From Candidatus Aenigmatarchaeota archaeon (GTDB lineage Archaea > Aenigmatarchaeota > Aenigmatarchaeia > GW2011-AR5): a stretch of 33,651 nucleotides of DNA. The position numbers were made by a program, and so were the translations under genes. The stretch lies in contig JAZDJX010000035.1 in NCBI GenBank assembly GCA_043803505.1, forward strand, positions 1 to 33,651. Direction: 5' to 3'. This document shows positions 555 to 19,920 of this stretch, piece by piece. Under the pieces are notes generated by a model that worked only from the letters and a program-made list of their open reading frames with translations, was not told where the DNA came from and made no database searches. Within the stretch, counting starts at the first letter, position 1; every line of letters begins with the position of its first letter.

Positions 555-1364
555 TTATCTTACAATTTCCACGTTTGCTTTTTCCCTTACTTGGTATGAA
601 TAATCCAAGTCAATGGCTACACTATAAGTCACATATGGGCTGATGGCAGATATACTAGCCCTGTCTAAATTGAGTTTGCATGTAATCCTTGAAAATTTTT
701 TTTCTATAGCATTAAGCTCGTCAAAACTTTCGCATTCTATTATGTTGCTGTTATCCCTTATACCCAAATCCGTGTTTTTTATAGGTCCTACAAACCCATT
801 GCCGATATTTTTTATTGTTAAATAAATATACGTCTCCCTGTTGCGGACAACAAGCGGCAGGCCATCGCTGAATTCAACATCAAGGGCAATATTGCTGTCG
901 CTGTAAGAATATGATTTTGGTTTTGTCTGTATTTTGCCTATACGTCTGTTGTATTCATTCTCTGAAATTATCTCAACGGTTTGTATGGCGCTTAATGTTG
1001 CATCAAAACTTGCTTTTGTCTGTATTTCAGACGTTATACTATTCTGCTCTATTTTTTGCGGGGCAACCAACTCACATATCATGCTCTTCAATTCACCTGG
1101 CTTCATTTCTGTCAGTTGCATCTTGCATTCTTCCTTTTTATCCAAAATGCCTGTTTCAAACACTTCTATATCGATATTTCTGTATGCTTTCACATCATTG
1201 TTCATAACATCAACAAACAGATTCATTGGTTTGCCCTGGAAAACCTTTTCAGGATCTGGCTGAAGGCTTATTTCCAATCCCTTTCCACCAAACGTAGAAA
1301 CGCATGCGCCCAGAAAAATCAAGATAGCTAGAAAAAGACCGCTTTTATGCATCTGAAAAATCAT
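555..1364 (-). CDS. Secreted lipoprotein-like CARDB-type surface protein
   Basis: The track frame starts at TTG 1370. ATG 1364 or ATG 1352 (MHKSGLFLAILIFLGAC) is more plausible. It has a signal peptide with lipobox-like LGAC, a CARDB-like strand YIYLTIKNIGNGFVGPIKN, and a C-terminal motif AIDLDYSYQVRE shared with the neighbouring gene. Confidence 0.7.
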   Translation of the reverse strand: MIFQMHKSGLFLAILIFLGACVSTFGGKGLEISLQPDPEKVFQGKPMNLFVDVMNNDVKAYRNIDIEVFETGILDKKEECKMQLTEMKPGELKSMICELVAPQKIEQNSITSEIQTKASFDATLSAIQTVEIISENEYNRRIGKIQTKPKSYSYSDSNIALDVEFSDGLPLVVRNRETYIYLTIKNIGNGFVGPIKNTDLGIRDNSNIIECESFDELNAIEKKFSRITCKLNLDRASISAISPYVTYSVAIDLDYSYQVREKANVEIVR

Positions 1365-1462
1365 TTTCAAAACACCATATTGATTTCAGTTTTGAATTGA
1401 GATGCACATGAATACTATTTTTTATTGTTATGTAGGGCATCTCATCTCGTATTTTTAACATT

Positions 1463-2464
1463 TTAACGCGGGCTTATCTTCACACTTTCCGAGCCGCGCA
1501 CTTCATATGTATAATCCAGTGTAGCTGTTATATCATAAGACTGAAAAGGCACGGTTATTGGTTCTGGACTGACTTCAAACCTGAGTGATGTCTTTGTTTC
1601 GCCTTTGTAAAGAGAAATGGGCTGTTGATTTGTCCATACATCCAAGTCTTGTTCTGCTTCGCCACCAAAGGGTATTTTGGTGGAATAGTCATTATTAAAT
1701 ATCTTGTCGCTATGTTTTGAATTCAAGATTTTTGGAATTTTTATTGTCATGGAACCAATTGGTATTACTGACCCCTCAATTGTGCCGGCTTCGCTGCCTG
1801 TTTTCTTTATTTTGAAGTTTATCACAGAAGTATATCCTTCAAGCATGTAAGGCGCGCCTACAATCTCAGCATCTATTTTCACAGGTCCAGAGCCATGAAT
1901 CTTTGAAATGTCTATTGTTGTTTTTGCTCCAGCGCGCTGGCGTGCAAGCACTTCTTCCATGTCGACAACAGGAACTATGAAAATCAATGATGTATCATAG
2001 TCATAATTTACCTTGAAGTTAAGCTTTGTCGGCGTTTCAAGGTCGACTATATCAGTTTTGCTTGGTGCCTTTAGCTTATATGTTATGACCTTCTCATCAC
2101 CCGGAGGCAATTCACACACATGACCTTCATAACAAATGTCAGGTATGCACTTGCTTCCAGCTGAATTACATAGGGTTCCCTCCCTGTCCTTGAATGTCGG
2201 TGCATCAAAAAGGCTGACAGCAACATTTTCTGCCGGTTTCTGGTCATCCTTGTTTTCAATGGAAAAAAAGAATTCAATATCTCTATCAGGCAGCATTGGC
2301 GATGTCGGTATTGTTTGTACGTTTTTTATTACTACACTATCTTTTGGTCCTTCCTGGTTGATGATTGTATTTATGTTAAGCACGTCGCCACCGAAGATAT
2401 TTGGTAGACCAGTACATGCTGTCACAAGCACAATCAACGGAAGAATTATGTAATAAAGCTTCAT
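1463..2464 (-). CDS. Secreted lipoprotein-like CARDB-type surface protein (paralog of 555..1364)
   Basis: The track frame starts at GTG 2473. ATG 2464 gives MKLYYIILPLIVLVTACTG, a signal peptide with lipobox-like VTAC. CARDB-like segments are FFFSIENKDDQKPAENVAVSLFD and INFKIKKTGSEAGTIEG. It ends with ATLDYTYEVRG. Confidence 0.7.
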   Translation of the reverse strand: MKLYYIILPLIVLVTACTGLPNIFGGDVLNINTIINQEGPKDSVVIKNVQTIPTSPMLPDRDIEFFFSIENKDDQKPAENVAVSLFDAPTFKDREGTLCNSAGSKCIPDICYEGHVCELPPGDEKVITYKLKAPSKTDIVDLETPTKLNFKVNYDYDTSLIFIVPVVDMEEVLARQRAGAKTTIDISKIHGSGPVKIDAEIVGAPYMLEGYTSVINFKIKKTGSEAGTIEGSVIPIGSMTIKIPKILNSKHSDKIFNNDYSTKIPFGGEAEQDLDVWTNQQPISLYKGETKTSLRFEVSPEPITVPFQSYDITATLDYTYEVRGSESVKISPR

Positions 2465-2553
2465 CAAAATCACATTCTAATATGTTTATTAACATAACCG
2501 ATATTAAAAAGTTGTTTTCAATTGGTATTCATTAGATAAAGCAGGAGATAACA

Positions 2554-3393
2554 GTGTTTCAGGACTTTTTTCAGACATATTATATTGACCCGATAAAATA
2601 TGGAACAGGATACAATATTGTCAATACATTGACCTATGCTATAATTCTTATTCTTGCTGCCTTTGGCACATACAAACTGCTGAAAAAAATGCAGATAAAA
2701 ATCGACAAGAAATTCTTTTTTGCTATAATGCCATTCATTGCGCTTGGTGGCATGTTGCGGGCTTTTGAAGATTTATCAGAGACAATTGCAGCTGCAAAAA
2801 ATCCCTTTCTGATAACACCGTTGATTTATTTCACAGTATTTGCAATAGCTTTGCTATCCCTCATCGTGTCAATAATTGTCAGACGGTATGCAAAGATAGG
2901 CTATCACAAAACATGGTTTTCTATTGGCACTCTGTCATGCATCGTTGTTTTGTTGTCAATGGCAATGAATGCCAGACAAATTCAGCCAAATGCGCTGCTG
3001 ATTATGGCAGGCATATCAGTTATGTGGCTTGCTGTGCTTTATGGTGTGAAGCTGGTAACGTCAAAAACAAGGATGAAAGGCTTCATGAGCACAGAAAATT
3101 TTTTTCTTCTTTTTGTTCATATGTTTGACGCTACAACAACCTTTACCGCCCTGCAGTTTTTCCCGAATTATTTTGAGCAGCATGTTTTGCCAGGTTTCTT
3201 TATCAACATGTTCGGGCCTGCAGTAATATTCGTTCTCAAATTTGCGATTGTCGGTGCTGTTCTTTACTTTCTCGATAAAGATTTGAGCAAGCCGCAAGAC
3301 ATAGAAAAGCGCAATTTCTTGAAGATTGTCATTATGATTCTTGGTCTTGGTCCTGGGCTGCGTAATTTCTTCAGGCTGGTGTTGGGCGTGTGA
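2554..3393 (+). CDS. Polytopic membrane protein (possibly archaeal DUF63-like)
   Basis: GTG start with AGGAG at 2543-2547, 6 nt upstream. About 8 hydrophobic helices. The N-terminus YYIDPIKYGTGYNIVNTLTYAIIL matches my recollection of the DUF63 family; this cannot be verified here. Confidence 0.7.
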   Translation: MFQDFFQTYYIDPIKYGTGYNIVNTLTYAIILILAAFGTYKLLKKMQIKIDKKFFFAIMPFIALGGMLRAFEDLSETIAAAKNPFLITPLIYFTVFAIALLSLIVSIIVRRYAKIGYHKTWFSIGTLSCIVVLLSMAMNARQIQPNALLIMAGISVMWLAVLYGVKLVTSKTRMKGFMSTENFFLLFVHMFDATTTFTALQFFPNYFEQHVLPGFFINMFGPAVIFVLKFAIVGAVLYFLDKDLSKPQDIEKRNFLKIVIMILGLGPGLRNFFRLVLGV

Positions 3394-3450
3394 TTATTTG
3401 CGCATTACATTTGAATTACAATTTGTAGCTATTTTTGAGTAACCCAAAGC

Positions 3451-3458
3451 TTTAAATA
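3451..3458 (+). promoter_or_regulatory. Candidate archaeal TATA box (TTTAAATA) for the 3503 gene
   Basis: AAAGC-TTTAAATA lies about 45-50 nt upstream of the start codons at 3500-3509. That position fits a TATA box about 25 nt upstream of a transcription start with a short leader. Confidence 0.4.
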
Positions 3459-3502
3459 ATTATCGGTGTATTAATTACTTCAAAGTAAGTAAAAATAATG
3501 TG

Positions 3503-5110
3503 ATGATTATGAAAAAAGGATTTAGACTTTTCAAAAACTTTGAAGAAGAATCAAAGACGGAAAAAGATTTAGATACATCGCCAAAATTACCACAAGAATA
3601 TTTAGATTGGAGGAAAAATAGAAAATCGTTAGGGCATATACCAAGACCGATAGAATATTTAAAGAAAATGCCAAAATCAGAAAAATATTCTGCACTTTCA
3701 TTTTTAGGAATAACCGCACTAGCGTTCTCGTTGTCATATCTTCATCCATTTTCACAATCCAAAAAAACAGTAGCATTGCAAACAAAGCCCATAGTTGCTG
3801 AAGAAAGTGTCGCTGGTGGATATAGAGATTCATCGGAATATCCTACTACTGATGACATGGTTGCTACTCTTGGAGATACCGCAGCTTTAGATACATCGAA
3901 GATTGCCGTTGAAAATATACCAATAAACCAATCATCAGCAGCTTATGATACTGCAGCCATCGATACTACATCGAAGATTGCTATTGGAGACACATTGACA
4001 TATCCTGCTGCAGAAGGACAATATATATTTAAGAAAGGTGACAAGGCCGAAAAAATTATAAAAAATCTTTATCCTGACCTGAAAACCCCTAAAAACATAC
4101 GTGACATGGTAAATTATTTGGCAGAATTAAATGCATCAGGATTTAACAGAAAGCATTTTCTTGTAGACAATAGAACTGTTGTAGCAGAAAAGGATTCAAC
4201 AGGCATTACTGTTCGCCGTGTTTTAGAAAAACCTGATGGTGAAAAATTAGACGCAATATTTGTTGGAGACACTTTGAATTATGTGTTGGTAACACCGCCT
4301 TTAGCAGTGCCAATAAACCAATCACCAGCAGCTTATGATACTGCAGCCATTAATGTTCCAGCCGCAGATACGTCTGCAAAAGCAGCTGCCGATACATCAA
4401 TCAGTTTTACAGAAGCCTATTTCGATACAGCAGCTTCCGACTCATTATTGCCTGATGGAGTGATTTACGTATTCAAGAAAGGTGACAAGGCTGAAAATGT
4501 TATAGGAAAAATTTATGAGTTAAAAACCCCAAAAGAAAAGCGTAAAATGGTAAACTATCTTGCAAATCTGAATGCACAAAGACCGAATAGAAAGCATTTT
4601 CTTGTAGACAATAGAACTGTTGTAGCAGAAAAGGATTCAACAGGTCATGTTATTTATAGTGTTTCAAACAAACCTGACGGTGAGATGTTTGATGTGATAT
4701 TTCCAGGGGACACATTATCTTTACCTTATCCTACAGACATCGATACTACAGCCTTTGCTGTCCCAGCTGTAGATACATTATCTCATCCCGTAGATGTTAA
4801 TAAAATATATAGTTCACCTGTAAAATCAGATAGTATAAAGGTTGATACAACAAAATCGATAACATCGTCTGTAAAACCAGATAGCACAATATCTTCATAT
4901 TCAACAAAAAACGGAGACGCTTCTTATGCATCTGCTGCAGACAAAAACAACGATCATTATAAAGCTGCTTATGGAAAAAATCATGCAGATGTTATGAACT
5001 CATACAATACGTTTGTTTCACAGGGCAAGAGCGTTGAAGATGCATACAGGCTTGCAGTTGGCATGAATGAAACAAAATGGAATGCTGCACTTAATCCTAA
5101 GAACTTGTAA
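3503..5110 (+). CDS. Membrane-anchored surface protein with an internally duplicated ~130-147 aa module (LysM-like ends)
   Basis: Start is ambiguous (GTG 3500, ATG 3503, ATG 3509). One TM helix (YSALSFLGITALAFSLSYL). Two copies of PINQS.AAYDTAAI...Y.FKKGDKAE..I...Y..KTPK..R.MVNYLA.LNA...NRKHFLVDNRTVVAEKDSTG...KPDGE..D.IF.GDTL. The tail is Ser/Thr/Asp-rich. Confidence 0.8.
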   Translation: MIMKKGFRLFKNFEEESKTEKDLDTSPKLPQEYLDWRKNRKSLGHIPRPIEYLKKMPKSEKYSALSFLGITALAFSLSYLHPFSQSKKTVALQTKPIVAEESVAGGYRDSSEYPTTDDMVATLGDTAALDTSKIAVENIPINQSSAAYDTAAIDTTSKIAIGDTLTYPAAEGQYIFKKGDKAEKIIKNLYPDLKTPKNIRDMVNYLAELNASGFNRKHFLVDNRTVVAEKDSTGITVRRVLEKPDGEKLDAIFVGDTLNYVLVTPPLAVPINQSPAAYDTAAINVPAADTSAKAAADTSISFTEAYFDTAASDSLLPDGVIYVFKKGDKAENVIGKIYELKTPKEKRKMVNYLANLNAQRPNRKHFLVDNRTVVAEKDSTGHVIYSVSNKPDGEMFDVIFPGDTLSLPYPTDIDTTAFAVPAVDTLSHPVDVNKIYSSPVKSDSIKVDTTKSITSSVKPDSTISSYSTKNGDASYASAADKNNDHYKAAYGKNHADVMNSYNTFVSQGKSVEDAYRLAVGMNETKWNAALNPKNL

Positions 5111-5136
5111 AGCCGAAAAAATTTTTGGGTGTTAAA

Positions 5137-5550
5137 ATGAGTAACAAAAAAGTCAGGACAGCTCTTGATGGATATGAAAGACAACTTTTTCCTGAGAAAT
5201 TAGACGAATTAAATAAAGTTTATGATGAAGTTGGGTCTAATGGATTTGCACTTGAAAAATCGGGTACAATAATTGACGGTTATGAACTAAGAGATAGACC
5301 AACTACAAAAGATAGATATACATGGTTCTGGGGACTTCATTTCAGGACTGAAAAAGGAAAAATAGCAACATTATTTCCATGGGCACAGGACTGGGATAAA
5401 AGAGATGGAATTCAATTGGATAGGTCTATTGCAATTTATACAAAAGGCAAAGTTGATACACAAGATGTAGATAGTCTTATTGAAAAACTCTACCAAGGGT
5501 TTCTTGTGGAGAGGAAAAAAGAAACTCCAATAAGTCTTCAATCACAGTGA
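5137..5550 (+). CDS. Hypothetical soluble protein
   Basis: 137-aa ORF from ATG 5137 (the track lists TTG 5125). No motif recognised. Composition looks coding, and it converges on the giant gene. Confidence 0.55.
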   Translation: MSNKKVRTALDGYERQLFPEKLDELNKVYDEVGSNGFALEKSGTIIDGYELRDRPTTKDRYTWFWGLHFRTEKGKIATLFPWAQDWDKRDGIQLDRSIAIYTKGKVDTQDVDSLIEKLYQGFLVERKKETPISLQSQ

Positions 5551-5620
5551 TTTTGAATTCTTGAATTTTTAAAATATATTATACTAGTAATAACTCACAG
5601 CTTATGATTTAAGCATCTTA

Positions 5621-8600
5621 TTATCCACTACCAAAATGTTTGTCAAGCAAATTTTTGTAACCCCCGACATCATTATTTTTGATATTTTCTACATAATCGT
5701 AAATATCATTTGTACATCCTAGTCCATTATATGCACGGAGCGCAGCATCCATTCCATCATAATGTTTTGGAGGCTTACCAGTGCAATCTTGGTATCCATC
5801 GCCAGGTACATTATAGTCTAATCCACCATTTGCATACTGTCCTTCAAGTTTCTTCAGCCACTGTACGCCAAGCCATATGTTACAATCTACGTCATAGGAT
5901 GTTTTTTTACCTGCTTCACAATTTGCAGAATATATCATCCCGCACTCTACATCCTGATTGCTTTTTGGTGTCTTATAATATTTGCTTTTGCATTCGCTCA
6001 AACTGCTATATGGGTTATACCATGCTGGATGTACTTTTTTATTCAGCTGCATGACGCCAAAGCTGCTTCCATCATAGCTCATAAGTATGTTTGTTTCCGG
6101 ACATGTTTTCCACAATTCTGCAACCTGTTTGCATGAGCCAGCTTTTCTTTGTCCGGCAACAGCACAACAGTGTCTGAATCCACTTTCCTGTTGTACGAGT
6201 TTCAGTATAGTTTCTGTGTCTTCTCTTGAAAACCCAGTAAGTTCTGCAGCAGCAATAACATTTTCTATAATATTATCTCCTGTTACAACCTCTTTCGATA
6301 CGCAAGCCCCTATCTTCTCAACATTGTTTTCAACCCTTTTGGCGTTCGGGTCCCACTGGCATGGCAGCCCGCATACTCTACTTGCATCCCCACATTGTTC
6401 ATCGCTCAGGAAATTCTCGCACTTGGCGTTTGCGCAGGATTTGCACTCTCCAGGAAGCATCGGATGTTCAATGAAATAGCATTTTGCACCTTTCATGCTT
6501 TCGCATTTGCTTCTGGTGCATGGCATTATCCCTTTTCCGCAGCTTTCACATGTTTTTTCATCAGCATCAGCATAAGGGCCGAGAGGCGGTGTGACAAGTA
6601 TCTGCTTGTCCTTCATCACATTGACTTCGAACTTTTCCATGCTCGCTGTTACAAGTCCTGTCTTGACATCCTGCACAGCAGCTGTATGAAATTTGCACGT
6701 GAAGAAAAATATTGACTGGAATTTGTACTGGAGTATTTCTATTGCCTTGTCTTCATCAGGCAAAACAGTGCAGGTTACATCTTCCTTTTTGTCATCCGTA
6801 AATTCACATGAAACCTTTCCTGTGCAGTCCACTTTTTTGTCATCATTCCCTTCAGTAAGAAATGTGCCGATAATGCTCGGGAAATGAAGTAATATCTGGT
6901 CGCCTTTATAGAGCCTTATCGTTGCATCAGGCCTTGTGTTAAGAACAGAAATAAGCAATATGGCATTCTTGTTGCCTTCCAGTGGCTGCGGCCCCACATT
7001 CATGGAAATCTGCGCAGGCGTTGACTTGCCTACAGCACCAACAGGGCGGTATACAGTCTTTCCTTCAGATTCTCTTCTCTTTATTTCATCCCTTGACATC
7101 ACTTCAACGAAAATCGAGCTGTCTGTTGAGTATAGATATGTCATGTTGACACTGACCTTTGCAAATCTGACTTCAGCCTGCCGCTCTTCCTGCAAAGACA
7201 GCGCAAGAAAGCCTTCATATGTGATTCTGTCGCTCGCCTCTGTTGGAATATTAAATTTTTCATTTTTATCTATCTTTACATTTTTTTCCTCGCAGAATGT
7301 GTTGCAGCTGGCGCTGACCCTTATGTCTTTTGCTTCATAATCCTTGCCCTCATTTTTTATTACAGTGATAACAGAAAATTCCTCCCAGCCTGGCACGCTC
7401 TCAGGAAGTGCATCTATGCTCATAAACTCAAGCGCCTTGGGGTAATCCAGTGGATTCTCTGGCCTTACATTTCTCATCTGCTGTCGAGCATAAAACTCAG
7501 TTGGGTTTGTCGCGAGGAGCCACACATCACCGACTGCGCCTTTCAGGGCATTGAAGGCAATGGAAACCGGAGCCTTTACTTGTTCCTTGATAATCTGGTA
7601 ATAGCCTGAATACGGGCCGAGCGCAACGTAGCCGAAAACAAGCACCACAACAGCAAGTGTCCTAACGCTTTTGTAGCCGCCGACCTGGTAAATCTGGAAA
7701 ACGCCTACGAACAGGAATAATATCAGGCCGCCCAGAACAAAGAACCATGTGTTGCCTATGTTTGCCTGGGTAAGCCCGAACGAATACATGAAAATTATCA
7801 CAGCATACGCTAGCATTGCGCCTGATGCAAGATGCGTTATAAAGTCAAATGGCTGTTGTACAGCCTCTATATTTATTATAAACAAGATGACAGCACCCAT
7901 TGCCGGCATTATAAGCAGCAGCAGCGGATAATATCCAATCCACGAAAGCACAAAATAAAACTGAATTATGACTATGGCAGTGCCTACTGTCCACGGCCCG
8001 ATGACTATGTTTATGATGTTATGCAGCAGGTTCTCATAGACATCACCCACTGTCATCATACCGCGGCTCATGGACTTAAGAAAGCGCAATCCCCTAAATG
8101 CAGTTGTTCTGCCCCTTGTAACAAAATCCTCGGCTATTTCACTGGCATAACCTTTCAGTTCGTTTTTAAGGGCTTCTTGATCATCTGAATTAAGTGGAAT
8201 TTTCCAGCGTCTTGCAACGCCTATTGTAACAGTTTCTGCCTTGTCTTCAAGATATTTTTTGAGTTGTGCAGATGCTGCATTCAGGTCATTGTTAAAATTT
8301 TTTTCAAAATCGTCCCGTGCCTTAATAAATTCACTTAATATAATACTTTCCTGTTTCATTGCATTCAGCATAGCCGGATCTATAGCATTGGCACCACCTG
8401 CCGCGCTTTCGTGCTTGCCAACCTGGTTTAGCATGTCCATTGAATTCATGCCACTTCCTTTCCATAACCCGTGTTGCTTCCGCATAAGCCTTTTCAATTC
8501 TTTTTCTGCGTCCTTTGCATTTTTTTTCAATCCCTCTAAACGCACAACCTCTGTACCTTTTTTGCCAATTTTTGAGTTGGCGTATTTCAGATTAAAGTCC

Positions 8601-10114
8601 CATTCAAACAGCCTTCTAAATTCTGCCTGTGCATAACCATCAAGAATGCGCTTGCCTTTGTTTATCGCAGAACGAAGATGGGGATTGTCAACATCAACCC
8701 AACCTTCTTTTGTCTTCATTTTTCCATGTTGGGCATGTTCTGTATCCCTTTCAATCTTCCCTTTCAGCAGGCTTGTGCGCAGCAATCCATGCGCAGTGTC
8801 GCCTGCTCCTTGCGCCCCGCCTTGATAAGGGCTTCCAATACGGGGGCGGTCAGTATGTACTACATCATCATATTTTTTATAAAAAGCTGTTATCTTCATA
8901 TCTTTATCTTCTATAGTAACAGTCCTTTTTCCCTTTTCTCCACCATCTTCCCATTTCTCAAAAACCCATAATATTTTTTTCCCATCTAAATGTGATTTTG
9001 GAACTTCAACTTCATATGTTGTATTTTCTATAGCTGGATGAATGTAACGAGTTCGTCCAACAATTTGTTTATCTATTGCTACCTTAACACCATCGATTGG
9101 TGTTGAATCAATAATAAGATTAAGTGTTTCAAAATATGCAGTAATTGTCATGAGTTCAACAACCTGCACATATCTTCTTGGGTCTGTAGAGCCATCATCC
9201 CATTTTGAAAATCTGTATTTAATATATGCACTGCCTTTTCGAAATGTTTTTTCAAGCTCAAGAACCTCGACTAAAAGTGTATCACCTTTCTTACACAGTT
9301 CACGTGTCGTAGTTACATAAGGTTCGCCTTTTTCATTCTTTTCTTTATCGTTTATTTTTATTTTAACACCGTGAAACGGTTGTGATACAACCTTAAGTGA
9401 CACCTCACTTTCATGGCCGGATGTTTTGTACACAGCTGTAATTGAATGATTCTGGTCCATAATTATCTCATAATATGTGCCGTCAGCTGCACCACTCCCA
9501 ACCGACATTCCTGATCCAACATTTTTGTTATCCAGTTCCCAGTGGTCAAATACAGATCCAGGATTTGGCATTTGCTTTATAGTTACACTTTTATTTGGTG
9601 GATATGAATGGCTGGTGTACGCAGATGGTGTTGTTATACCCGCTTTTTTTGGATGCACAGCCACAGCTAGAACATACCAGTCAGAACTTCCTTTATCCTC
9701 AGTTTTCCCAGGGGGCAAGGCATATTTCCACGGCTCACCAGCCGTCAAAAGCTTTCTTTCCGGTCCAGGCAGTAATTGTTTTCTTTCAGGTCCAGCCGTC
9801 AAAAGCTTTCTTTCCGGTCCAGGCAGTAATTGTTTTCGTTCAGGACCTGTTGTCAAAAGTTTTTGCGAACCTGAATCTCCAATAAAAATGAATTGTTTTC
9901 CACAATGGTCACATTGGTAGACATGTCTTCTTGGTGGATTGTAATTTGTTGGAGTCCGTATATTCATGTTGTATAAGATTCCAGGTCCGCCGCTGTCGCA
10001 GTCCGGGCAATCAATGCCTTCCAGTCTCGCCTCAAGGCCGGTTTTTCTTGTTACCCTTTCGACAGTATGTTCTTTATTTGTGATGTAGTCGCGGATTTTC
10101 AGTTTTTCAGCCAT
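5621..10114 (-). CDS. Giant (1,497 aa) five-TM surface protein: zinc ribbon + repeats / 5 TM / CARDB-like + Cys-rich + SLT-type lytic transglycosylase domain
   Basis: A 4,494-nt uninterrupted ORF in AT-rich DNA. Segments read from the translation: aa 36-71 CPDC...CDHC; aa 84-126 GPERK(Q/L)LL repeats; aa ~145-413 three beta-rich repeats ending F..W[ED][DN]G...ITA[VFY][YF]; aa 440-690 charged helical region; aa 700-835 five hydrophobic helices; aa ~905-1175 CARDB-like (VITVIKNEGKDYEAKDIRV); aa 1188-1252 Cys-rich; aa 1283-1485 the SLT motifs QQESGF, SSFGVMQL, NIWLGVQWL, ALRAYNGLG. Confidence 0.85.
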   Translation of the reverse strand: MAEKLKIRDYITNKEHTVERVTRKTGLEARLEGIDCPDCDSGGPGILYNMNIRTPTNYNPPRRHVYQCDHCGKQFIFIGDSGSQKLLTTGPERKQLLPGPERKLLTAGPERKQLLPGPERKLLTAGEPWKYALPPGKTEDKGSSDWYVLAVAVHPKKAGITTPSAYTSHSYPPNKSVTIKQMPNPGSVFDHWELDNKNVGSGMSVGSGAADGTYYEIIMDQNHSITAVYKTSGHESEVSLKVVSQPFHGVKIKINDKEKNEKGEPYVTTTRELCKKGDTLLVEVLELEKTFRKGSAYIKYRFSKWDDGSTDPRRYVQVVELMTITAYFETLNLIIDSTPIDGVKVAIDKQIVGRTRYIHPAIENTTYEVEVPKSHLDGKKILWVFEKWEDGGEKGKRTVTIEDKDMKITAFYKKYDDVVHTDRPRIGSPYQGGAQGAGDTAHGLLRTSLLKGKIERDTEHAQHGKMKTKEGWVDVDNPHLRSAINKGKRILDGYAQAEFRRLFEWDFNLKYANSKIGKKGTEVVRLEGLKKNAKDAEKELKRLMRKQHGLWKGSGMNSMDMLNQVGKHESAAGGANAIDPAMLNAMKQESIILSEFIKARDDFEKNFNNDLNAASAQLKKYLEDKAETVTIGVARRWKIPLNSDDQEALKNELKGYASEIAEDFVTRGRTTAFRGLRFLKSMSRGMMTVGDVYENLLHNIINIVIGPWTVGTAIVIIQFYFVLSWIGYYPLLLLIMPAMGAVILFIINIEAVQQPFDFITHLASGAMLAYAVIIFMYSFGLTQANIGNTWFFVLGGLILFLFVGVFQIYQVGGYKSVRTLAVVVLVFGYVALGPYSGYYQIIKEQVKAPVSIAFNALKGAVGDVWLLATNPTEFYARQQMRNVRPENPLDYPKALEFMSIDALPESVPGWEEFSVITVIKNEGKDYEAKDIRVSASCNTFCEEKNVKIDKNEKFNIPTEASDRITYEGFLALSLQEERQAEVRFAKVSVNMTYLYSTDSSIFVEVMSRDEIKRRESEGKTVYRPVGAVGKSTPAQISMNVGPQPLEGNKNAILLISVLNTRPDATIRLYKGDQILLHFPSIIGTFLTEGNDDKKVDCTGKVSCEFTDDKKEDVTCTVLPDEDKAIEILQYKFQSIFFFTCKFHTAAVQDVKTGLVTASMEKFEVNVMKDKQILVTPPLGPYADADEKTCESCGKGIMPCTRSKCESMKGAKCYFIEHPMLPGECKSCANAKCENFLSDEQCGDASRVCGLPCQWDPNAKRVENNVEKIGACVSKEVVTGDNIIENVIAAAELTGFSREDTETILKLVQQESGFRHCCAVAGQRKAGSCKQVAELWKTCPETNILMSYDGSSFGVMQLNKKVHPAWYNPYSSLSECKSKYYKTPKSNQDVECGMIYSANCEAGKKTSYDVDCNIWLGVQWLKKLEGQYANGGLDYNVPGDGYQDCTGKPPKHYDGMDAALRAYNGLGCTNDIYDYVENIKNNDVGGYKNLLDKHFGSG
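9741..9848 (-). repeat. Tandem 54-bp coding repeat (two units, each two 27-bp sub-repeats) encoding GPERK(Q/L)LL(P/TA)
   Basis: Units 9741-9794 and 9795-9848 are identical over their first 43 nt and differ at a few 3' positions. Confidence 0.9.
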
Positions 10115-10151: not shown

Positions 10152-10246
10152 TATAGTGAAACAAGAAAATAATACCTACATTACAACTTGTTTCACATAT
10201 AGTCACAAAAGGTGTAATATAATAATTATTTCTTTTGATGACTATA
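10152..10246. repeat. Paired long-hairpin intergenic element (type A/D)
   Basis: hp1 pairs GTGAAACAAG (10156-10165) with CTTGTTTCAC (10187-10196) around a 21-nt loop. hp2 pairs TATAG-TCACAAAAG (10198-10211) with CTTTTGaTGA-CTATA (10232-10246) and has one bulge. The architecture matches 31942-32038. Confidence 0.7.
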
Positions 10247-10341: not shown

Positions 10342-10572
10342 TTATCCTATATACTCAATGCTCTTGAACTCTTTCCTAAGATTATAGAAATTTCTCTCAT
10401 CCTCAGGCAGTTCATTTAGCAGTGAATTCAGAATGACAGAAAGTGTTTTTATTTTTGTCTTGACTTCCTTGTAGCTTATGCCGCCTACTCCATAGAGGGT
10501 CTTTAGCTGACGTAACTCACGCTCTATCTTGTATATTTCCTCGTAGGCATCCTTGCCTTTTGGTGTAAGCAT
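10342..10572 (-). CDS. Small helical hypothetical protein (76 aa)
   Basis: ATG-initiated ORF on the same strand, between the 370-aa anchored protein and the giant gene. The sequence is charged and helical with no recognised motif. Confidence 0.5.
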   Translation of the reverse strand: MLTPKGKDAYEEIYKIERELRQLKTLYGVGGISYKEVKTKIKTLSVILNSLLNELPEDERNFYNLRKEFKSIEYIG

Positions 10573-10619: not shown

Positions 10620-11732
10620 CTAGACCTTTACCTTCACGCCTATGTTCTTCACATAGAATCCTGAGTCATCCAGGCCCTTTATGATAAGAGAATTTGTGCC
10701 CTCTTTGACATCCTGCTTGCTGAAATAAAATGTATATGACTTTTCCTCAGCCCTGTCAAAGTCGCTGTAGGTTGTTTCTGCTACCCTGACAGAAAAGCCA
10801 CCGCTCTTTTTCACTCTCGGTACATCAAAGCTTATGATGCCAACCTTCATGCTATTATATTGTGCATTGCTGATTCTGAATTCTGTAATAAGTTCAGTTT
10901 CTATGTTTTTGACGAAGAATATATTGATAAATGCATTACCTGAAATCTTTGTATCTTTTCCTGGCTTGAATAGAAGAACATTATTGTCACGTACCATGTC
11001 AGATTTTTTTAGTGTCAGTGTCTGCATGTCGCGCACTGCGCCTGAATATATGGTCTTCCCGTTAAGCTCAAGATTCAGTATGCCAATGCTTTGATTCAAT
11101 CTTAGAACTATGTTGCCTTCCCTGAAAGTATCATATTCCACGCCAAGAGAAAATTTGTAGTCTGTTGTGTCCTGATATGTCGAAAAAAGAGTGATACTGG
11201 CATCTGTGAGCCCGTACAGCGACGGAGCCCACAATCTTATACCAGAGCTCATGGTTTCTATTTCAACAAGCATATCATCTGACAATCCCTCGCTTATTGA
11301 AAATTCATATCTGCCTGGTTCTAAAATCTTCTCCACTGCTGTTTTGCCGTTTATCCTGATCACAAGCGGCGCATAAGAGTTTGTCCTGTTGACAGAAAAA
11401 CTTATCTTCATCTCGTTTATGTTCCCGCCAATCCTGTATACAATGCTGCTTTTTCCTGAGAGCAGCCCGTTGTATACATCCTTGTTTCCCAATTCAATCT
11501 TTTTTGAATCAGCAAGATCTGATGCCTTAAACTCTGTTTTCAGCGTATCCGCCCTGTCAGCGCTACTCATACCAACAAATTGTGAACCAGCCGTATCACT
11601 GCTGATGTTCAACGGTACATATCCGCCGTTTCCTGCGCCAATAGCTGTGTCAATGCTGACACCGTTGGTTATAACAATCAATGCAGCGAGTATAACCAGC
11701 CCTGCTACAAGAAATGCTATAAATTCATCCAT
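10620..11732 (-). CDS. N-terminally anchored surface protein (M-D-E-F N-terminus)
   Basis: The track starts at GTG 11741. ATG 11732 gives MDEFIAFLVAGLVILAALIVITNG, a hydrophobic helix directly after an acidic residue. The remainder is beta-rich. It lies upstream of and co-oriented with the giant gene. Confidence 0.7.
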   Translation of the reverse strand: MDEFIAFLVAGLVILAALIVITNGVSIDTAIGAGNGGYVPLNISSDTAGSQFVGMSSADRADTLKTEFKASDLADSKKIELGNKDVYNGLLSGKSSIVYRIGGNINEMKISFSVNRTNSYAPLVIRINGKTAVEKILEPGRYEFSISEGLSDDMLVEIETMSSGIRLWAPSLYGLTDASITLFSTYQDTTDYKFSLGVEYDTFREGNIVLRLNQSIGILNLELNGKTIYSGAVRDMQTLTLKKSDMVRDNNVLLFKPGKDTKISGNAFINIFFVKNIETELITEFRISNAQYNSMKVGIISFDVPRVKKSGGFSVRVAETTYSDFDRAEEKSYTFYFSKQDVKEGTNSLIIKGLDDSGFYVKNIGVKVKV

Positions 11733-11887
11733 ATTAATCACTCAAAATATATTACTTTAGAGTAACTATAATACATAGATTTTTAAAGCTTTCCTTTCCA
11801 TGAAAACAAAAGGGTTAAAAACTTTTGAGGCTTATGTTAAATACCATAAACAATCAAAAAATTCAGCAAAACTGGAGGTGTAAAAGA

Positions 11888-14648: not shown

Positions 14649-15215
14649 TTATTCTATAGGAACCTCTTTGCCGCATTTTCCATTCAGCCTTACACCGCCA
14701 ATCAATCTTTTTACACACTGCTTGACAAATGTGTTTTTATCTGCGTTAATGTCATGTGAAAGATCCACGCAAAGTTCGTTGCTCTTGAAGAATCCTATAA
14801 AAAATGATTCATTTGTGCCCCATCCTGTATTGGAATAGACAGTCACAGTCATGCTGAAAACATTTTTTCCATCCTTCTCAAGTTTAACGGTGTCGCTGCC
14901 TGCAATTTTTTCCTTGAAGAATACAACTGGTATGGCATCAACATTTTGAGTTCCATCATAGACTATTCCGAGGTTTGTGATTAAAATTTCAAACTTGAAA
15001 TTGCCTTCATAGTTTGCTATCTCATCGGCTGTCGCCTGTATGCATGTAAGATTTATTGTACCCTTATATTTTGGCGAAAGTGTGAAAAACATGTCTTCAT
15101 CGGGCTTTCCGAGCCATTTGTAAACAATGTCCTTGCCAGCTGCGAAAATCGTAATCACTAAAGCAAGCGTAATAATCATTGTAAGAAACTTGAACGTCGT
15201 GGTAATTTCAACCAT
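14649..15215 (-). CDS. N-terminally anchored pilin-like/surface protein (M-V-E-I N-terminus)
   Basis: MVEITTTFKFLTMIITLALVITIFAAGK is followed by a beta-rich 160-aa domain with 4 Cys. It belongs to the minus-strand operon. Confidence 0.7.
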   Translation of the reverse strand: MVEITTTFKFLTMIITLALVITIFAAGKDIVYKWLGKPDEDMFFTLSPKYKGTINLTCIQATADEIANYEGNFKFEILITNLGIVYDGTQNVDAIPVVFFKEKIAGSDTVKLEKDGKNVFSMTVTVYSNTGWGTNESFFIGFFKSNELCVDLSHDINADKNTFVKQCVKRLIGGVRLNGKCGKEVPIE

Positions 15216-15245
15216 AAGTACTATTTGTTCTTGGTATTAAAATAT

Positions 15246-16202
15246 CTAAACAGGGCAGTTATCGCATGTCACCTGTTCAGGTAGCACCCTGAAAGAATAT
15301 ATACCCAGCAACATGTCATAGCATCTCTTGTCAAAATCCACCATATCTCTTTCCCAGCAGTCATTGACACCTTCAGCGGGTTTTTTCCATAAGGATATTA
15401 ACATTTCATCACCAGCATCTTTCCATTCGCCGCCCATTTCAATGAGTTCAATGATGAATTTAGGTTCCCTTACCTCGCATCCTTTTTCAGGGTATGTAAA
15501 ACCTTCAAGCGTTATTTTAACCTCACCTTTACACAAATCAAAACTTTTTTCGCATTTTGACATGTCTTCTCCCTGTTTATCGCAATCAATACTTTTATCC
15601 TTCAGACGAAACCACGACTCAATGTATTTCACAGCTTTGTCATCTTTGCATTCAATAGTCATGACAGCAAGGCATTCTACAATGTCTTTTTCAATGAATT
15701 CCAGATTATTCAGTTGTTTTAGCCTCATGACAGCAAAGCTGTCAAGCACAATACCCTCACCCTCGCTCAGTTTTCCTTGGTATAATGCGCTTCTTTGTGT
15801 TCCTATCCGTCTGTTGGTTGTCAGCGGTGCCTCTTTGCTTCTTAGAGTAAATTTTCCAAGATAAAAGGCAGCATCATTTTTTTTGAGATTTATTATATCT
15901 GGATTATGCACTTTGGTGCCTTTGAACAGCATAGAAACAGTTGCTTCTGTGTCCTGTGAAGACTTGAAGCCTGCTGAAAGATTTATTTCATATGAATAAT
16001 CCGATACAAATCTGCTAGCTTTCATATTTGCTGATGGAGTGCCGACAAGCTTGACAATGCCTGAAAATTTCTCTACAACACCTATTGCTTTTGGGTCTTT
16101 GATTGGCTGATTAAAGCCCTCGGCAAACAGGACGGTTGCAATGACGAGAACAATAAGGACTGTTATGATACTTACCAGAACTTTTTGAATTATCTCAACC
16201 AT
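15246..16202 (-). CDS. N-terminally anchored pilin-like/surface protein (M-V-E-I N-terminus), Cys-rich
   Basis: The track starts at TTG 16217. ATG 16202 gives MVEIIQKVLVSIITVLIVLVIATVLF. The C-terminal part is Cys-rich (about 12 Cys). Confidence 0.7.
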   Translation of the reverse strand: MVEIIQKVLVSIITVLIVLVIATVLFAEGFNQPIKDPKAIGVVEKFSGIVKLVGTPSANMKASRFVSDYSYEINLSAGFKSSQDTEATVSMLFKGTKVHNPDIINLKKNDAAFYLGKFTLRSKEAPLTTNRRIGTQRSALYQGKLSEGEGIVLDSFAVMRLKQLNNLEFIEKDIVECLAVMTIECKDDKAVKYIESWFRLKDKSIDCDKQGEDMSKCEKSFDLCKGEVKITLEGFTYPEKGCEVREPKFIIELIEMGGEWKDAGDEMLISLWKKPAEGVNDCWERDMVDFDKRCYDMLLGIYSFRVLPEQVTCDNCPV

Positions 16203-16206
16203 TACA

Positions 16207-16374
16207 TCAGCCGCCAAATATTCTCGCTATAAGGTCCATCAGTCCGAAACCAGTGCGCGAGGCATGGCTTGACATGTCAGCATAGGCATTGCTCGCCACC
16301 ATAATCATGACAGCAGCGACTATGATAGCCAACAATATTTTATATACAGCAGCAATCATAATTCCCTTTTGCAT
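16207..16374 (-). CDS. Small pilin-like protein (55 aa), not in the ORF track
   Basis: My translation: MQKG|IMIAAVYKILLAIIVAAVMIMVASNAYADMSSHASRTGFGLMDLIARIFGG*. It has a class-III-like KG followed by a hydrophobic helix. Its stop lies 4 nt before the next ATG. Confidence 0.45.
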   Translation of the reverse strand: MQKGIMIAAVYKILLAIIVAAVMIMVASNAYADMSSHASRTGFGLMDLIARIFGG

Positions 16375-16375
16375 G

Positions 16376-16528
16376 TTATCTACCCCTTATAACAGCGGTT
16401 ACGTTTCCAAAGAATGCCTCTGTATTTTTTGATGTAAAAGCTACCATAAGTACAAGCGCAAATAAAAAAAACAGAATCCAGATTATCTGTGTCTGACTAA
16501 GACCAAGTACTTCAGCAGCTTCACTCAT
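16376..16528 (-). CDS. Small hydrophobic protein (50 aa), not in the ORF track
   Basis: My translation: MSEAAEVLGLSQTQIIWILFFLFALVLMVAFTSKNTEAFFGNVTAVIRGR*. First gene of the minus-strand operon. Its stop is 1 nt from the next ATG. Confidence 0.4.
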   Translation of the reverse strand: MSEAAEVLGLSQTQIIWILFFLFALVLMVAFTSKNTEAFFGNVTAVIRGR

Positions 16529-16645
16529 ATTACCTATATGATTTCGGTTTTATTAATGCTTTTTCTGTCGCTGTCATAAAAAAATAAGCCTAATCCAACT
16601 GAACATACTATAACTTTATTTATGCGGTTCGCTATATATTGATTC

Positions 16646-16777
16646 ATGAGAATGGAATATATTGTTATAAGTTTCATCCTGATGCTTGTTGTGCTTGTGG
16701 CACTCGTTTCATTTGGAAAAAACATTGTTCCAATGTTTTCTCAGGCAATGAAAGGTTTCATTGACATGATAGGCTAG
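16646..16777 (+). CDS. Small hydrophobic protein (43 aa), not in the ORF track
   Basis: My translation: MRMEYIVISFILMLVVLVALVSFGKNIVPMFSQAMKGFIDMIG*. First gene of the plus-strand operon. Its stop abuts the next gene. Confidence 0.4.
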   Translation: MRMEYIVISFILMLVVLVALVSFGKNIVPMFSQAMKGFIDMIG

Positions 16778-16786
16778 GTGAATACC

Positions 16787-18349
16787 ATGAAAGGCGGAGA
16801 ATATGCAATGGTAGAATTTTTTGTAGAGATGGTATTCATTGTTCTGCTCTTTCTTTTCGTTTACAATATTGTTTTAACGCTTGCAAATCCGGACATGCAG
16901 ATCGCCTTTCTGAATTCAGAACTTCTTGCATCAAAAATGGGCGAAGCATGTACAAACGACAAAGCAACACTTGACGGCTTCCAGCTTTCACAACCAAAAC
17001 CGTCAAACACGGTTACATCGGTGCTCAACATGGCTTCCAGCGGCGCAGCCACTGAGTTTTTTTCAAAGATAATGCTTGCAAGGTCATCAGATCCACACTT
17101 CCTGCTTTATTACGAGGCATTTCCATTTGGTGAATCTGTCGGATGGGATGTCTACCAGAACAATCGTAATATATTGTTCGCACCATTTGAGGTCGATGGG
17201 ACAGAAATAAAATCAAGCGTTTTTGAAGACAGGTTGTGGAGGAATTCTGATTATAATTTTCTGAACAGGACGTATACATCAGCCAAGGAAAAGATTTCTA
17301 ATGTAGGAGAAGAATTCAAAGAAGATAATGCTGAGTCAGTAGGTGCTGATATAATGGTTTATACTACAAATATAATGCTTGACGACAGACTCAACGCAAT
17401 ACCCACAGAGGAGCCCGAGCAGCTCTCCAAGACGTTCAAGAGGGAAGAAACAGGCAACCTTGGAAAATGGCAGAATGACGATTTCTATAAATTTTTCGGC
17501 TATGCAAGTCTCAAGACAGAAGAACAGATGGCTGTCAAGTACAGACCATGCGGTGTTAATTCTCTTTGTTTAAAAACAAGGGAAGGTGTCCATAGATTCA
17601 AGCTTGATGATGCATGTAAGAATATAAAATATGTGGAATTGGTTTATGATTCAACACACGCAACCATGAGCATAGTTAATGCATTGGAGGGTGGAGGGTC
17701 ATTAATAGCTGGAACGACCGTGACTATTGCGCTTCTTCTCAGATGGCAACCAAGAGCAGCTTCATTAATGGCCGCGCTCACGACATATGCTGGAGCAAAA
17801 TACGGCAAAGAAATGTTTTCAAACATACTAGGATACAAGAACTCTGATTTTTATTCAGCAAGCCCATGCAACATTAAGAGCAAGATAGAGATAAAGAAAA
17901 TAAGCTGTGCTGATATCAAGTGCAGCAAACTCATGAAATATCCTATATACAAGTACAGTAATGATGGGCAGAATGTAAATAAGGTTGGCGAACATTATAC
18001 ATGCATGCAGAACATAGGTGAAAATTTCGATTATGATAAATTAGACTCACAAAATATAGATGGCGACTGCATGCAGATAAAGGTCAGTGAGGTATACAAT
18101 GACTTCTGCTGGACGCCAGACCCATATTCACCAGCTTTATGGTCTAGCTTAAAAGATACTTTTAAAACACTAACAGGAAACATAGTTCATTCATTTCCAG
18201 TAAAAAAGAACACAGAATTCATGTTACTTGATGGTGTGAGCGCTGTTATGCTCAAGCCAGTTCCAGAAAGTTTTTCAAAAGCAGGTTTCTGGAAGACAAC
18301 TTTTGACCTTGACTGGCGCTGGCCCATGGGATATCTAGCACCAGGATGA
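16787..18349 (+). CDS. Large pilin-like/surface protein (class-III-like MKGG signal, then MVEFF helix)
   Basis: The track starts at GTG 16778. ATG 16787 gives MKGGEYAMVEFFVEMVFIVLLFLFVYNIVL. The ~490-aa extracellular part has a second hydrophobic stretch (GGGSLIAGTTVTIALLL) and many Cys. Confidence 0.75.
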   Translation: MKGGEYAMVEFFVEMVFIVLLFLFVYNIVLTLANPDMQIAFLNSELLASKMGEACTNDKATLDGFQLSQPKPSNTVTSVLNMASSGAATEFFSKIMLARSSDPHFLLYYEAFPFGESVGWDVYQNNRNILFAPFEVDGTEIKSSVFEDRLWRNSDYNFLNRTYTSAKEKISNVGEEFKEDNAESVGADIMVYTTNIMLDDRLNAIPTEEPEQLSKTFKREETGNLGKWQNDDFYKFFGYASLKTEEQMAVKYRPCGVNSLCLKTREGVHRFKLDDACKNIKYVELVYDSTHATMSIVNALEGGGSLIAGTTVTIALLLRWQPRAASLMAALTTYAGAKYGKEMFSNILGYKNSDFYSASPCNIKSKIEIKKISCADIKCSKLMKYPIYKYSNDGQNVNKVGEHYTCMQNIGENFDYDKLDSQNIDGDCMQIKVSEVYNDFCWTPDPYSPALWSSLKDTFKTLTGNIVHSFPVKKNTEFMLLDGVSAVMLKPVPESFSKAGFWKTTFDLDWRWPMGYLAPG

Positions 18350-18386
18350 AAATATTAACAAGAAATTCATACAAAAATTTTATTCT

Positions 18387-18529
18387 ATAGCCATCCAAAG
18401 AAATAAACATGATAAGATACCTTTGGTGACTACATGACGAAACTTTGTTTCGTCTGTACAGGTAAAGCCATGCTTTACCATGTATATGTGAACCAAATAA
18501 ATAATACCGACAAAACTTATTTGATTCAC
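18387..18529. repeat. Four-hairpin intergenic element (type B/C)
   Basis: hp0 pairs CCAAAG (18395-400) with CTTTGG (18421-26), with outer CA/TG and TAG/CTA pairs. After CAT, hp1 pairs GACGAAAC with GTTTCGTC around a ttt loop (18436-54). After TGTACA, hp2 pairs GGTAAAGC with GCTTTACC around a cat loop (18461-79). After ATGTATAT, hp3 pairs GTGAACCAAATAA (18488-500) with TTATTTGATTCAC (18517-29). Confidence 0.75.
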
Positions 18530-18588
18530 ATTATCTGTTTCACAAACTTTATTTATCAAGTTCTCCATATAGCATTACAGGTATACTA

Positions 18589-18996: not shown

Positions 18997-19019
18997 AATC
19001 ATAATTGATGTGATGATGA

Positions 19020-19916: not shown

Positions 19917-19920
19917 TTTC

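Follow-up and report, generated by a model that had tools for sequence, protein, structure and literature searches.

What would an archaeon do with a giant membrane protein whose outermost domain resembles a peptidoglycan hydrolase? The question is raised by a 33,651-nucleotide (nt) stretch of DNA from a Candidatus Aenigmatarchaeota archaeon (contig JAZDJX010000035.1; hereafter the window), which carries archaeal genes for FEN1 (XPG_N/XPG_I), a DUF63 membrane protein, class I lysyl-tRNA synthetase and a T2SSE/FlaI-type ATPase, and in which one open reading frame (ORF) of 1,497 amino acids (aa) occupies positions 5621-10114 of the minus strand. To our knowledge, archaea of this kind have no murein. 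We describe the product of this ORF as a multi-pass membrane protein with a predicted extracellular peptidoglycan-hydrolase head, and we argue that it is probably, though far from certainly, a membrane-tethered, surface-displayed murein hydrolase acting on bacterial walls that touch the archaeal surface. The parts of the protein are given below by aa numbers and by their minus-strand positions in the window.

The ORF has 1,497 codons and starts with ATG, and, judged from its sequence and that of its relatives, it is a real gene and no chance product. Its reading as a single 1,497-aa gene, proposed in an earlier note made from the DNA letters without database searches, is borne out by the ATG start and by at least 105 clusters that match its core at E≤1e-30. 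A word-index homologue search returned two relatives only, P0002 (1,840 aa, with Flg_new_2, SLT and Amidase_2 domains) and P0003 (1,508 aa, with an SLT domain), and the same two were obtained when the query was an alignment of 30 sequences. An exhaustive search of 1.84 billion representatives with a profile of the core (aa 421-1290) detected 143 clusters with E≤1e-3, of which 105 reach E≤1e-30; lengths of 1,300-1,970 aa are common among them (P-numbers denote representative clusters throughout). Looking up the exact sequences of the query protein and of P0002 returned no contigs. Among the GTDB species representatives, five loci (L001-L005) hold relatives: two are labelled Aenigmatarchaeota, one belongs to archaeon GW2011_AR5 (a 399-kb contig), and two come from unclassified archaea. 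The core has no match in Pfam, PHROGs, NCBIfam, PDB sequences or PDB folds (best Foldseek match of the N-terminal, helical and membrane model, E=0.17), and scans of the full protein against Pfam, PHROGs and NCBIfam gave a sub-threshold InlB B-repeat as the only match. The expectation that no characterised family has this architecture therefore holds for the core.

A very large ORF in a single contig could also be an assembly chimera, or derive from a virus or mobile element, for instance as a tape-measure-like gene that includes a lytic domain. The GC content and the GC content of third codon positions (GC3) do vary along the ORF (GC3 0.16-0.56), a Foldseek search of BFVD returned tape-measure and minor tail proteins as weak matches (E 0.005-0.1, probability ≤0.33; tape-measure proteins taken alone, E 0.04-0.4, probability ≤0.25), and the phage tape-measure protein 9b45 (gp41) is among the SLT matches in PDB. 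However, the same end-to-end architecture recurs in independent assemblies and in 30/30 full-length relatives; the chromosomal synteny around the gene is conserved; a scan of 2.9 million viral contigs yielded no relative, and the core lacks a PHROGs match. The GC3 profile parallels the conservation of the protein and contains no single step. We regard an artefact or a foreign gene as extremely improbable. Three further BFVD matches are unnamed (E 4e-5 to 8e-3, probability ~1.0), and the β-domains of the protein may account for them. Along the ORF, GC3 ranges from 0.16 (aa 301-400) up to 0.56 (aa 801-900); the other GC-rich spot of the window is the ATPase gene.

The membrane topology determines which end of the protein meets the outside world. 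Hydropathy identifies five hydrophobic segments between aa 699 and 838, a five-helix transmembrane (TM) bundle (7601..8020) with a conservation of 0.57 and a predicted local distance difference test score (pLDDT) of ~90; by peak-picking, five hydrophobic peaks are seen in 19/30 relatives and fewer in the remainder. The N-terminal part lacks a hydrophobic N-terminal segment (maximum 19-aa Kyte-Doolittle mean of 1.18 over aa 1-680), which agrees with the proposed lack of a signal peptide. Averaged over 30 relatives, the 38 residues before TM1 contain 5.2 K+R versus 1.8 D+E, loop 4-5 contains 0.8 versus 0, and loop 3-4 contains 0.2 versus 0.63; these charges fit the positive-inside rule with the N-terminus inside and the C-terminus outside. 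Cysteines show the corresponding asymmetry: 28 of the 33 in the giant protein are located after aa 937, and their share is 0.7% in the hydrophilic N-terminal ~700 aa (aa 1-698) versus 4.2% in aa 839-1497. In 27/30 relatives it is 0-0.4% before TM1 and 2.6-6% after TM5. The exceptions on the N-terminal side (0.5-1.1%) are P0020, the query protein and P0011, the last two of which carry N-terminal CxxC pairs.

A further line of evidence comes from a sub-clade in which two neighbouring genes encode the protein, the break falling precisely in the TM4/TM5 loop. Eight clusters (P0061, P0070, P0075, P0082, P0086, P0092, P0100, P0118) end with '...FQFYQ(T/S)G(D/E)', and seven (P0031, P0034, P0036, P0040, P0041, P0091, P0107) start with 'M..(Y/F)K..LQGSVVIL.FAYIALGPYS'; in L005 the two halves (2115-4730 and 4733-7717) lie on the same strand, 2 nt apart. 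The C-terminal half begins with a short basic peptide followed by TM5, that is, with a type II signal anchor, which places the ectodomain outside. A frameshift artefact as the cause of the two-ORF state in L005 was rejected, since 7-8 independent clusters begin or end at exactly the same loop; from its sequence the cut looks like a natural boundary of gene fission or fusion. The segments are thus separate genes in a minority of relatives only, and there as adjacent halves of one unit, which speaks for the proposed topology and not against it. Hydropathy, loop charge, cysteine asymmetry and gene split are four independent lines that agree, and the predicted N-in/C-out orientation is strongly supported by them. 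The layout that the earlier note had foreseen, with a cytoplasmic N-region, five TM helices and a Cys-rich part outside, is kept in 30/30 full-length relatives.

The membrane block is unlikely to be a plain anchor. Conserved polar residues (N748, D757, H761, Q807, Y809, Q810) are located at the predicted cytoplasmic face of the bundle, which suggests a functional site rather than passive anchoring. A somewhat wider set of conserved residues, all placed where TM2, TM3 and TM4 are predicted to meet the cytoplasm, comprises N748, P755, D757, H761, Q807, Y809, Q810, G812 and G813. The core of TM helices and juxtamembrane hairpin, together with the large cytoplasmic part, probably does more than hold the protein in the membrane; it may oligomerise, regulate, or couple to cytoplasmic partners.

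The predicted enzyme is the C-terminal head (aa 1281-1497; 5624..6274), which was recognised from its motifs, from a head hidden Markov model (HMM) and from the family profile. The head contains the motifs E1310-S1311, G1353-x-M-Q1356 and A-Y1462-N-G; E1310 and G1353 are invariant in the 30-sequence alignment, and S1311, Q1356 and Y1462 are at least 90% conserved. A head HMM made without the query scores the query with 92.5 bits (E=2e-30), and the family profile matches MltC (4.6e-12), Slt70 (2.9e-9), goose lysozyme (4e-6) and MltE in PDB, the other matches being coiled-coil noise. With the Pfam SLT model (PF01464, cut-off 21.3 bits) P0003 scores 45.9, P0002 33.4, the L004 relative 30.9 and P0011 51.9 bits, and 19/30 relatives match at E≤0.001. 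Pfam misses the domain in the query because of two Cys-containing insertions (~27 and ~32 aa); one separates the catalytic Glu from GVMQ, and the other comes just behind GVMQ. The SLT-type domain that had been proposed is therefore confirmed through the relatives, the head HMM and the motifs, while it stays invisible to Pfam and phmmer in the query itself. Among the top 50 Foldseek matches of the ectodomain, in which an Ig-like tandem dominates, lysozyme-like folds are absent, so that the SLT fold is not confirmed by this route. The assignment of the head as a GH23/SLT lytic transglycosylase, a predicted activity, is strongly supported by the sequence comparisons.

By comparing the domain content and conservation of the relatives, the protein can be divided into a constant core and variable ends. 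The Pfam modules found in the 30 full-length relatives are SLT (19), Peptidase_M23 (3), Amidase_2 (3), VanY (2), glucosaminidase (2) and esterase (2). Wherever coordinates are listed, the wall-degrading modules follow the TM block on its C-terminal side, SLT often being paired with another enzyme, and the zinc ribbon of P0011 and the AIG2/GGACT domain of P0010 are N-terminal to it. Average conservation is 0.69 in the hairpin, 0.57 in the TM bundle, ~0.5 in the β-sandwiches, 0.28 in the head and 0.16 in the N-terminus. Since it is high in the membrane and stalk core and low in the head, the core appears to be the conserved unit and the enzymes exchangeable cargo, and the helical/five-TM/hairpin core may represent a new membrane module for presenting exchangeable enzymes. 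The AIG2/GGACT domain of P0010 (aa 4-139) is γ-glutamyl-cyclotransferase-like and occupies the predicted cytoplasmic N-terminus; judging from this fusion, a γ-glutamyl-acting enzyme joined to murein hydrolases could hint at the processing of wall peptides.

What would such a head act on? The substrate would be the peptidoglycan of a neighbouring bacterium, because the archaeon has no murein and because the companion modules in the relatives match the chemistry of murein and not that of pseudomurein. It could be argued instead that the enzyme attacks an archaeal host, with pseudomurein or some other glycan as its target, or that the SLT head is a catalytically dead binding module. The known DPANN hosts are archaea, the query head is divergent with its two insertions, and an esterase takes the place of the murein hydrolase in some relatives. 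On the other hand, the catalytic Glu is invariant in the 30-sequence alignment, and the modules of the relatives are murein-specific (MurNAc-L-Ala amidase, the D-Ala-D-Ala carboxypeptidase VanY, M23), whereas pseudomurein contains neither MurNAc nor D-amino acids. We consider a different target or an inactive head to be very unlikely.

The mechanism that we propose for a surface-displayed murein hydrolase is as follows. In the strongly supported topology, the N-terminal ~700 aa remain inside the cell and include a variable module, a linker rich in proline, β-domains and the conserved bundle of helices; the five TM helices fix the protein in the membrane, the last of them crossing it outward; and the C-terminal 659 aa, with the hairpin, two Ig-like β-sandwiches, a Cys-rich mini-domain and the GH23 head, are outside. 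The β-sandwiches would serve as spacers and the Cys-rich domain would be locked by disulfides, so that the enzyme is held beyond the archaeon's own envelope. Because of the membrane tether, the enzyme would work only where the archaeal surface meets a bacterial wall, and glycan strands would be cut locally at the contact. The amidase, M23, VanY and glucosaminidase modules of relatives would cut stem peptides and cross-links. In this way the archaeon may reach a bacterial partner or prey to which it could attach, on which it could feed or whose wall material it could scavenge.

Several points weigh against this interpretation. The support is computational throughout, the topology being based on hydropathy, charge and cysteine statistics, and the taxonomic range of the family rests on five genome loci only. 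The Pfam SLT model gives no match to the query protein at E≤1, a phmmer search of PDB with the full protein and with aa 1279-1497 found nothing relevant, and the two head insertions could impair activity. The replacement of the murein hydrolase by an esterase in some relatives means that the target may not always be peptidoglycan. Domains similar to InlB B-repeats, and PEGA in one relative, are usually extracellular in bacteria and would be odd if cytoplasmic. Finally, we know of no bacterial host of Aenigmatarchaeota.

The same protein with the same topology would also suit a free-living or loosely associated archaeon that scavenges wall debris as a source of amino sugars and amino acids or kills competing bacteria, its ectodomain perhaps being shed by proteolysis. 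The heads found across the family (SLT, glucosaminidase, Amidase_2, M23, VanY) cover many murein bonds, as a degradative toolkit would, and the cytoplasmic γ-glutamyl-cyclotransferase-like domain in one relative could fit the processing of imported peptides; moreover, according to passages of PMC12352652, bacteria-killing archaeal peptidoglycan hydrolases have been demonstrated experimentally in other archaea. Yet a diffusible or purely digestive enzyme would hardly need so costly a design, with its several membrane passes, 700 aa in the cytoplasm and a highly conserved juxtamembrane core, the tether limits its action to objects in contact with the cell, and we identified no cleavage site for shedding. 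We therefore see scavenging or killing as the less likely use of the protein, but one to be taken seriously.

A bolder extension of the contact-dependent hydrolase can be speculated upon, in which the five-helix bundle and the hairpin oligomerise into a wall-breaching conduit or contact-site organiser common to the whole phylum. Murein digestion outside would then be coupled to the import and processing of peptides or to the formation of a cell-cell bridge. The polar residues at the cytoplasmic face of the bundle and the γ-glutamyl-cyclotransferase-like module of one relative hint at such a conduit, which we nevertheless consider doubtful. If it were true, a whole archaeal phylum would consist of episymbionts or predators of bacteria; we know of no cultivated DPANN archaeon for which an archaeon-bacterium host relationship has been demonstrated.

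Several known systems bear a partial likeness to the giant protein. PrgK (pCF10), TraG (pIP501) and CwlT (ICEBs1) combine an N-terminal anchor with stacked peptidoglycan hydrolases that open the wall at a cell-cell junction; they have a single anchor, are much smaller and are encoded in operons of type IV secretion systems (T4SS). The giant protein, in contrast, has five TM helices and a large cytoplasmic region, and its similarity to them is confined to the hydrolase modules. Giant multi-domain SPEARE proteins of Nanohaloarchaeota, which Hamm and co-workers are said to have described in 2019, reportedly combine adhesion and degradative domains and have been proposed to act at the host interface; by their description, they carry protease or nuclease domains and concern archaeal hosts, whereas the giant protein and its relatives carry murein hydrolases. 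Phage tape-measure and internal virion proteins with lytic-transglycosylase domains, such as 9b45 gp41 and T7 gp16, resemble it in being long and α-helical, with membrane-active segments plus an SLT domain, and in breaching the bacterial wall from outside, but the giant protein differs in its core without a PHROGs match, in the lack of relatives on viral contigs, in fold matches that are weak and not significant, and in its conserved chromosomal context. The GH23 enzymes MltC, Slt70, MltE/EmtA and goose-type lysozyme share the catalytic E-S, GLMQ and AYNGG motifs of the head; the bacterial ones are periplasmic lipoproteins or soluble proteins that remodel their own wall, while here the domain is at the tip of an archaeal multi-pass protein.

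The closest precedents are large SLT proteins of DPANN archaea (fam00969), which have already been proposed to act against bacterial walls in Woesearchaeota and Pacearchaeota (2021, PMC8204110; Vigneron et al. 2022, PMC9723730; PMC10936187). Like the giant protein, they are very large, contain an SLT/GH23 domain, belong to murein-free organisms and are thought to bind or degrade bacterial walls; the giant protein shares with them its great size, its DPANN origin and an SLT domain whose predicted place is outside the cell. The fam00969 proteins were reported as specific to Woesearchaeota and Pacearchaeota, up to 3,000 aa long and extracellular (PMC8204110), whereas the giant protein has its located relatives in Aenigmatarchaeota, GW2011_AR5 or unclassified archaea, is multi-pass with ~700 aa in the cytoplasm, and combines an unannotated helical/five-TM/hairpin/β core with a variable head. 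Secreted archaeal peptidoglycan hydrolases that kill bacteria are aimed at bacterial murein as well, as stated in passages of PMC12352652; as far as those passages deal with DPANN, they cite Woesearchaeota reports only, and a multi-pass anchored architecture is not among them.

Our literature search found no paper describing the Aenigmatarchaeota family or its architecture. The claim of novelty therefore stands for the architecture of the core and falls for large SLT proteins as such, which have been reported before in other DPANN (PMC8204110, PMC9723730); what is new here is a conserved membrane core previously undescribed, with polymorphic heads, large DPANN murein hydrolases being already known. 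Most DPANN archaea, the Aenigmatarchaeota among them, are obscure in host and way of life, and the family offers a tangible molecular hint that bacteria may be their partners, prey or food, based on murein-free archaea, a conserved chromosomal surface machine and a variable tip that is nearly always a murein hydrolase. It also provides practical handles: the family profile for genome surveys, the ectodomain for antibodies or probes, and the enzyme head for assays.

The predicted cytoplasmic part is the most variable region of the protein at its beginning and becomes conserved toward the membrane. It starts with the zinc-ribbon-like pair CPDC (aa 36-39) and CDHC (aa 68-71; together 9902..10009), whose CxxC spacing is ribbon-like. 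The pair noted earlier is thus present in the sequence, but this segment has no zinc-ribbon match in Pfam, pLDDT is 33-42 over aa 20-140 (below 45 across the pair), and the pair is missing from the closest relatives P0002 and P0003 and from 28/30 aligned sequences (the query being one of the 30). P0011 has an N-terminal double zinc ribbon (DZR) at aa 53-100 (32.6 bits, Pfam cut-off 27.3), and the zinc-ribbon-like pair is a variable N-terminal add-on. Next comes a proline-rich PERK(Q)LLP(G) tandem repeat (aa ~84-126; 9737..9863), a predicted disordered linker (pLDDT <45) that corresponds to the repeat region expected in the N-terminal part; at the DNA level TRF reports a period of 54 nt, 2.4 copies and 90% matches, and similar repeats are present in the L002 relative, P0004, P0006 and P0024. 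A β-domain (aa 146-232; 9419..9679), also predicted to be cytoplasmic, has a pLDDT of ~90 and gives the sub-threshold match to the InlB B-repeat model Flg_new_2 (E=1.4e-4, 22.2 bits, cut-off 23.6), which 4/30 relatives match at E≤0.001. A further β-rich region (aa 233-415; 8870..9418) is poorly conserved and is modelled with confidence only over aa ~365-415.

The conserved cytoplasmic segment (aa 421-698; 8021..8854) contains a series of motifs with invariant columns (RPxxxSPY, NKGKR, NSDD, RGRT, SRG), which is followed by a long α-helical bundle that ends in a basic stretch before TM1. The AlphaFold2 model of aa 1-860 is confident over aa 478-860, with the helices of aa 478-704 at pLDDT 80-95.

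The ectodomain was modelled with AlphaFold2 over aa 841-1497 from 35 aligned sequences (mean pLDDT 84), and consists, in this order, of a helical hairpin, two large β-sandwiches, a small Cys-rich domain and the helical head. The juxtamembrane hairpin (WLLATNPTEWYARQQ..NVRPE.P; aa 839-895; 7430..7600) forms two helices in the model and is the most conserved segment of the family (0.69). An NPTH-like autocleavage at 'TNPTE' (aa 869-873) was considered and set aside, as N870 is less than 90% conserved and the model shows a helix-turn-helix. The first Ig-like β-sandwich (aa 896-1006; 7097..7429) has a pLDDT of ~90, and a short helix leads to the second one (aa 1007-1175; 6590..7096), which was delineated from the model and from Foldseek. 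The best PDB matches of the ectodomain are Ig-like tandems (Cna/SdrD adhesins, integrin α legs, RbmA, transglutaminase barrels; E 1e-5 to 1e-3). CARDB-like domains, which had been suggested for this region, were not recovered: the CARDB model (PF07705) has no match in the full protein at E≤1, none in the β-region of the query and four orthologues even at E≤10, and none among the 30 relatives at E≤0.001. As modelled, the β-domains are generic Ig-like β-sandwiches with a fold that is not CARDB-specific. The Cys-rich mini-domain (aa 1184-1275; 6290..6565) contains 12 Cys at positions conserved in the family and has a pLDDT of 75-90; a 65-aa Cys-rich segment is indeed present, but its densest window (aa 1188-1252) holds 11 Cys and not 13 as counted before.

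The gene is embedded in a conserved cell-surface neighbourhood. Upstream on the same strand are, as had been noted, a gene for a 76-aa charged helical protein (10342..10572, minus), which is also found upstream of the L002 relative, and a gene for a 373-aa N-anchored protein (M-D-E-F...; 10620..11741, minus), which is conserved upstream of the L002 and L004 relatives. On the other side lies a convergent DUF63 gene (2554..3393, plus); DUF63 corresponds to AliA/AliB, an archaeal lipoprotein-lipidation family (PMC12462473). Beyond it are genes for two proteins with lipobox-like signal peptides, one of 336 aa ('...LVTAC'; 1463-2473, minus) and one of 271 aa ('...FLGAC'; 555-1370, minus). The whole block (555-3393) is syntenic with the giant gene in L001, L002, L004 and L005. 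Four to five independent assemblies, including the 399-kb GW2011_AR5 contig, show synteny of the neighbourhood with proteins that are 30-40% identical, which points to a chromosomal, vertically inherited gene in a cell-surface neighbourhood.

Two features next to the giant gene are of a different kind. Between the DUF63 gene and the giant gene (3500-5550) there are two plus-strand ORFs of 536 aa and 141 aa, which have no Pfam match and no counterpart in the related loci; within the 536-aa ORF a segment of ~170 aa is duplicated, and the duplication is rich in 'AAYDTAA...KKGDKAE...NRKHFLVDNRTVVAEKDSTG'. The AT-rich spacer of 227 nt behind the 76-aa gene contains a perfect 10-bp inverted repeat, GTGAAACAAG (21 nt) CTTGTTTCAC, at ~10156-10196, that is, 40-80 nt 5' of the start codon of the giant ORF, and from its sequence it could be an operator or a terminator hairpin.

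The location of the gene also bears on whether the protein is a structural component of some larger machinery, be it a pilus, a secretion system or a conjugation-like apparatus (an analogue of VirB1/VirB6, PrgK or F-TraG) that works with the pilin-like genes and the T2SSE/FlaI-type ATPase of the window. Conjugation systems do include multi-TM proteins with a large external domain, N-anchored Cys-rich proteins are encoded at 14649-22595, one of them with a sub-threshold SLT match (E=0.007), and the T2SSE-family ATPase is encoded at 24498-26141. However, the N-anchored pilin-like genes (14649-16217) begin 4.5 kb from the start of the giant ORF, and not ~2 kb as in the earlier note, with Alba-like and FEN1 genes in between; neither these genes nor the ATPase occur within 10 kb of the relatives in the five other loci, so that the supposed synteny with a pilin cluster is conserved at none of them. 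In addition, no T4SS genes were found in the window or in the related loci, the core resembles neither VirB6/TrbL nor any solved secretion component in sequence or fold, and the archaeon itself lacks murein that would have to be pierced. On this genomic evidence the giant gene is not part of the pilus-like cluster, and a role in such an apparatus is very improbable.

The distal half of the window may hold a second wall-directed surface or pilus system, made up of a run of anchored Cys-rich proteins and the ATPase. The run consists of plus-strand genes for N-anchored Cys-rich proteins at 16778-22595, the last of which encodes 614 aa (20751-22595) and gives its sub-threshold SLT match at aa 430-486, a PDB sequence match being absent. 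The T2SSE/FlaI-type ATPase gene follows behind this run, 14 kb from the giant gene. Farther away still, a 136-aa protein (27731-28141) starts with MKGISPLIASALLIVITIVIAG, which resembles an archaeal type IV pilin class III signal peptide, making it presumably the clearest pilin candidate of the window.

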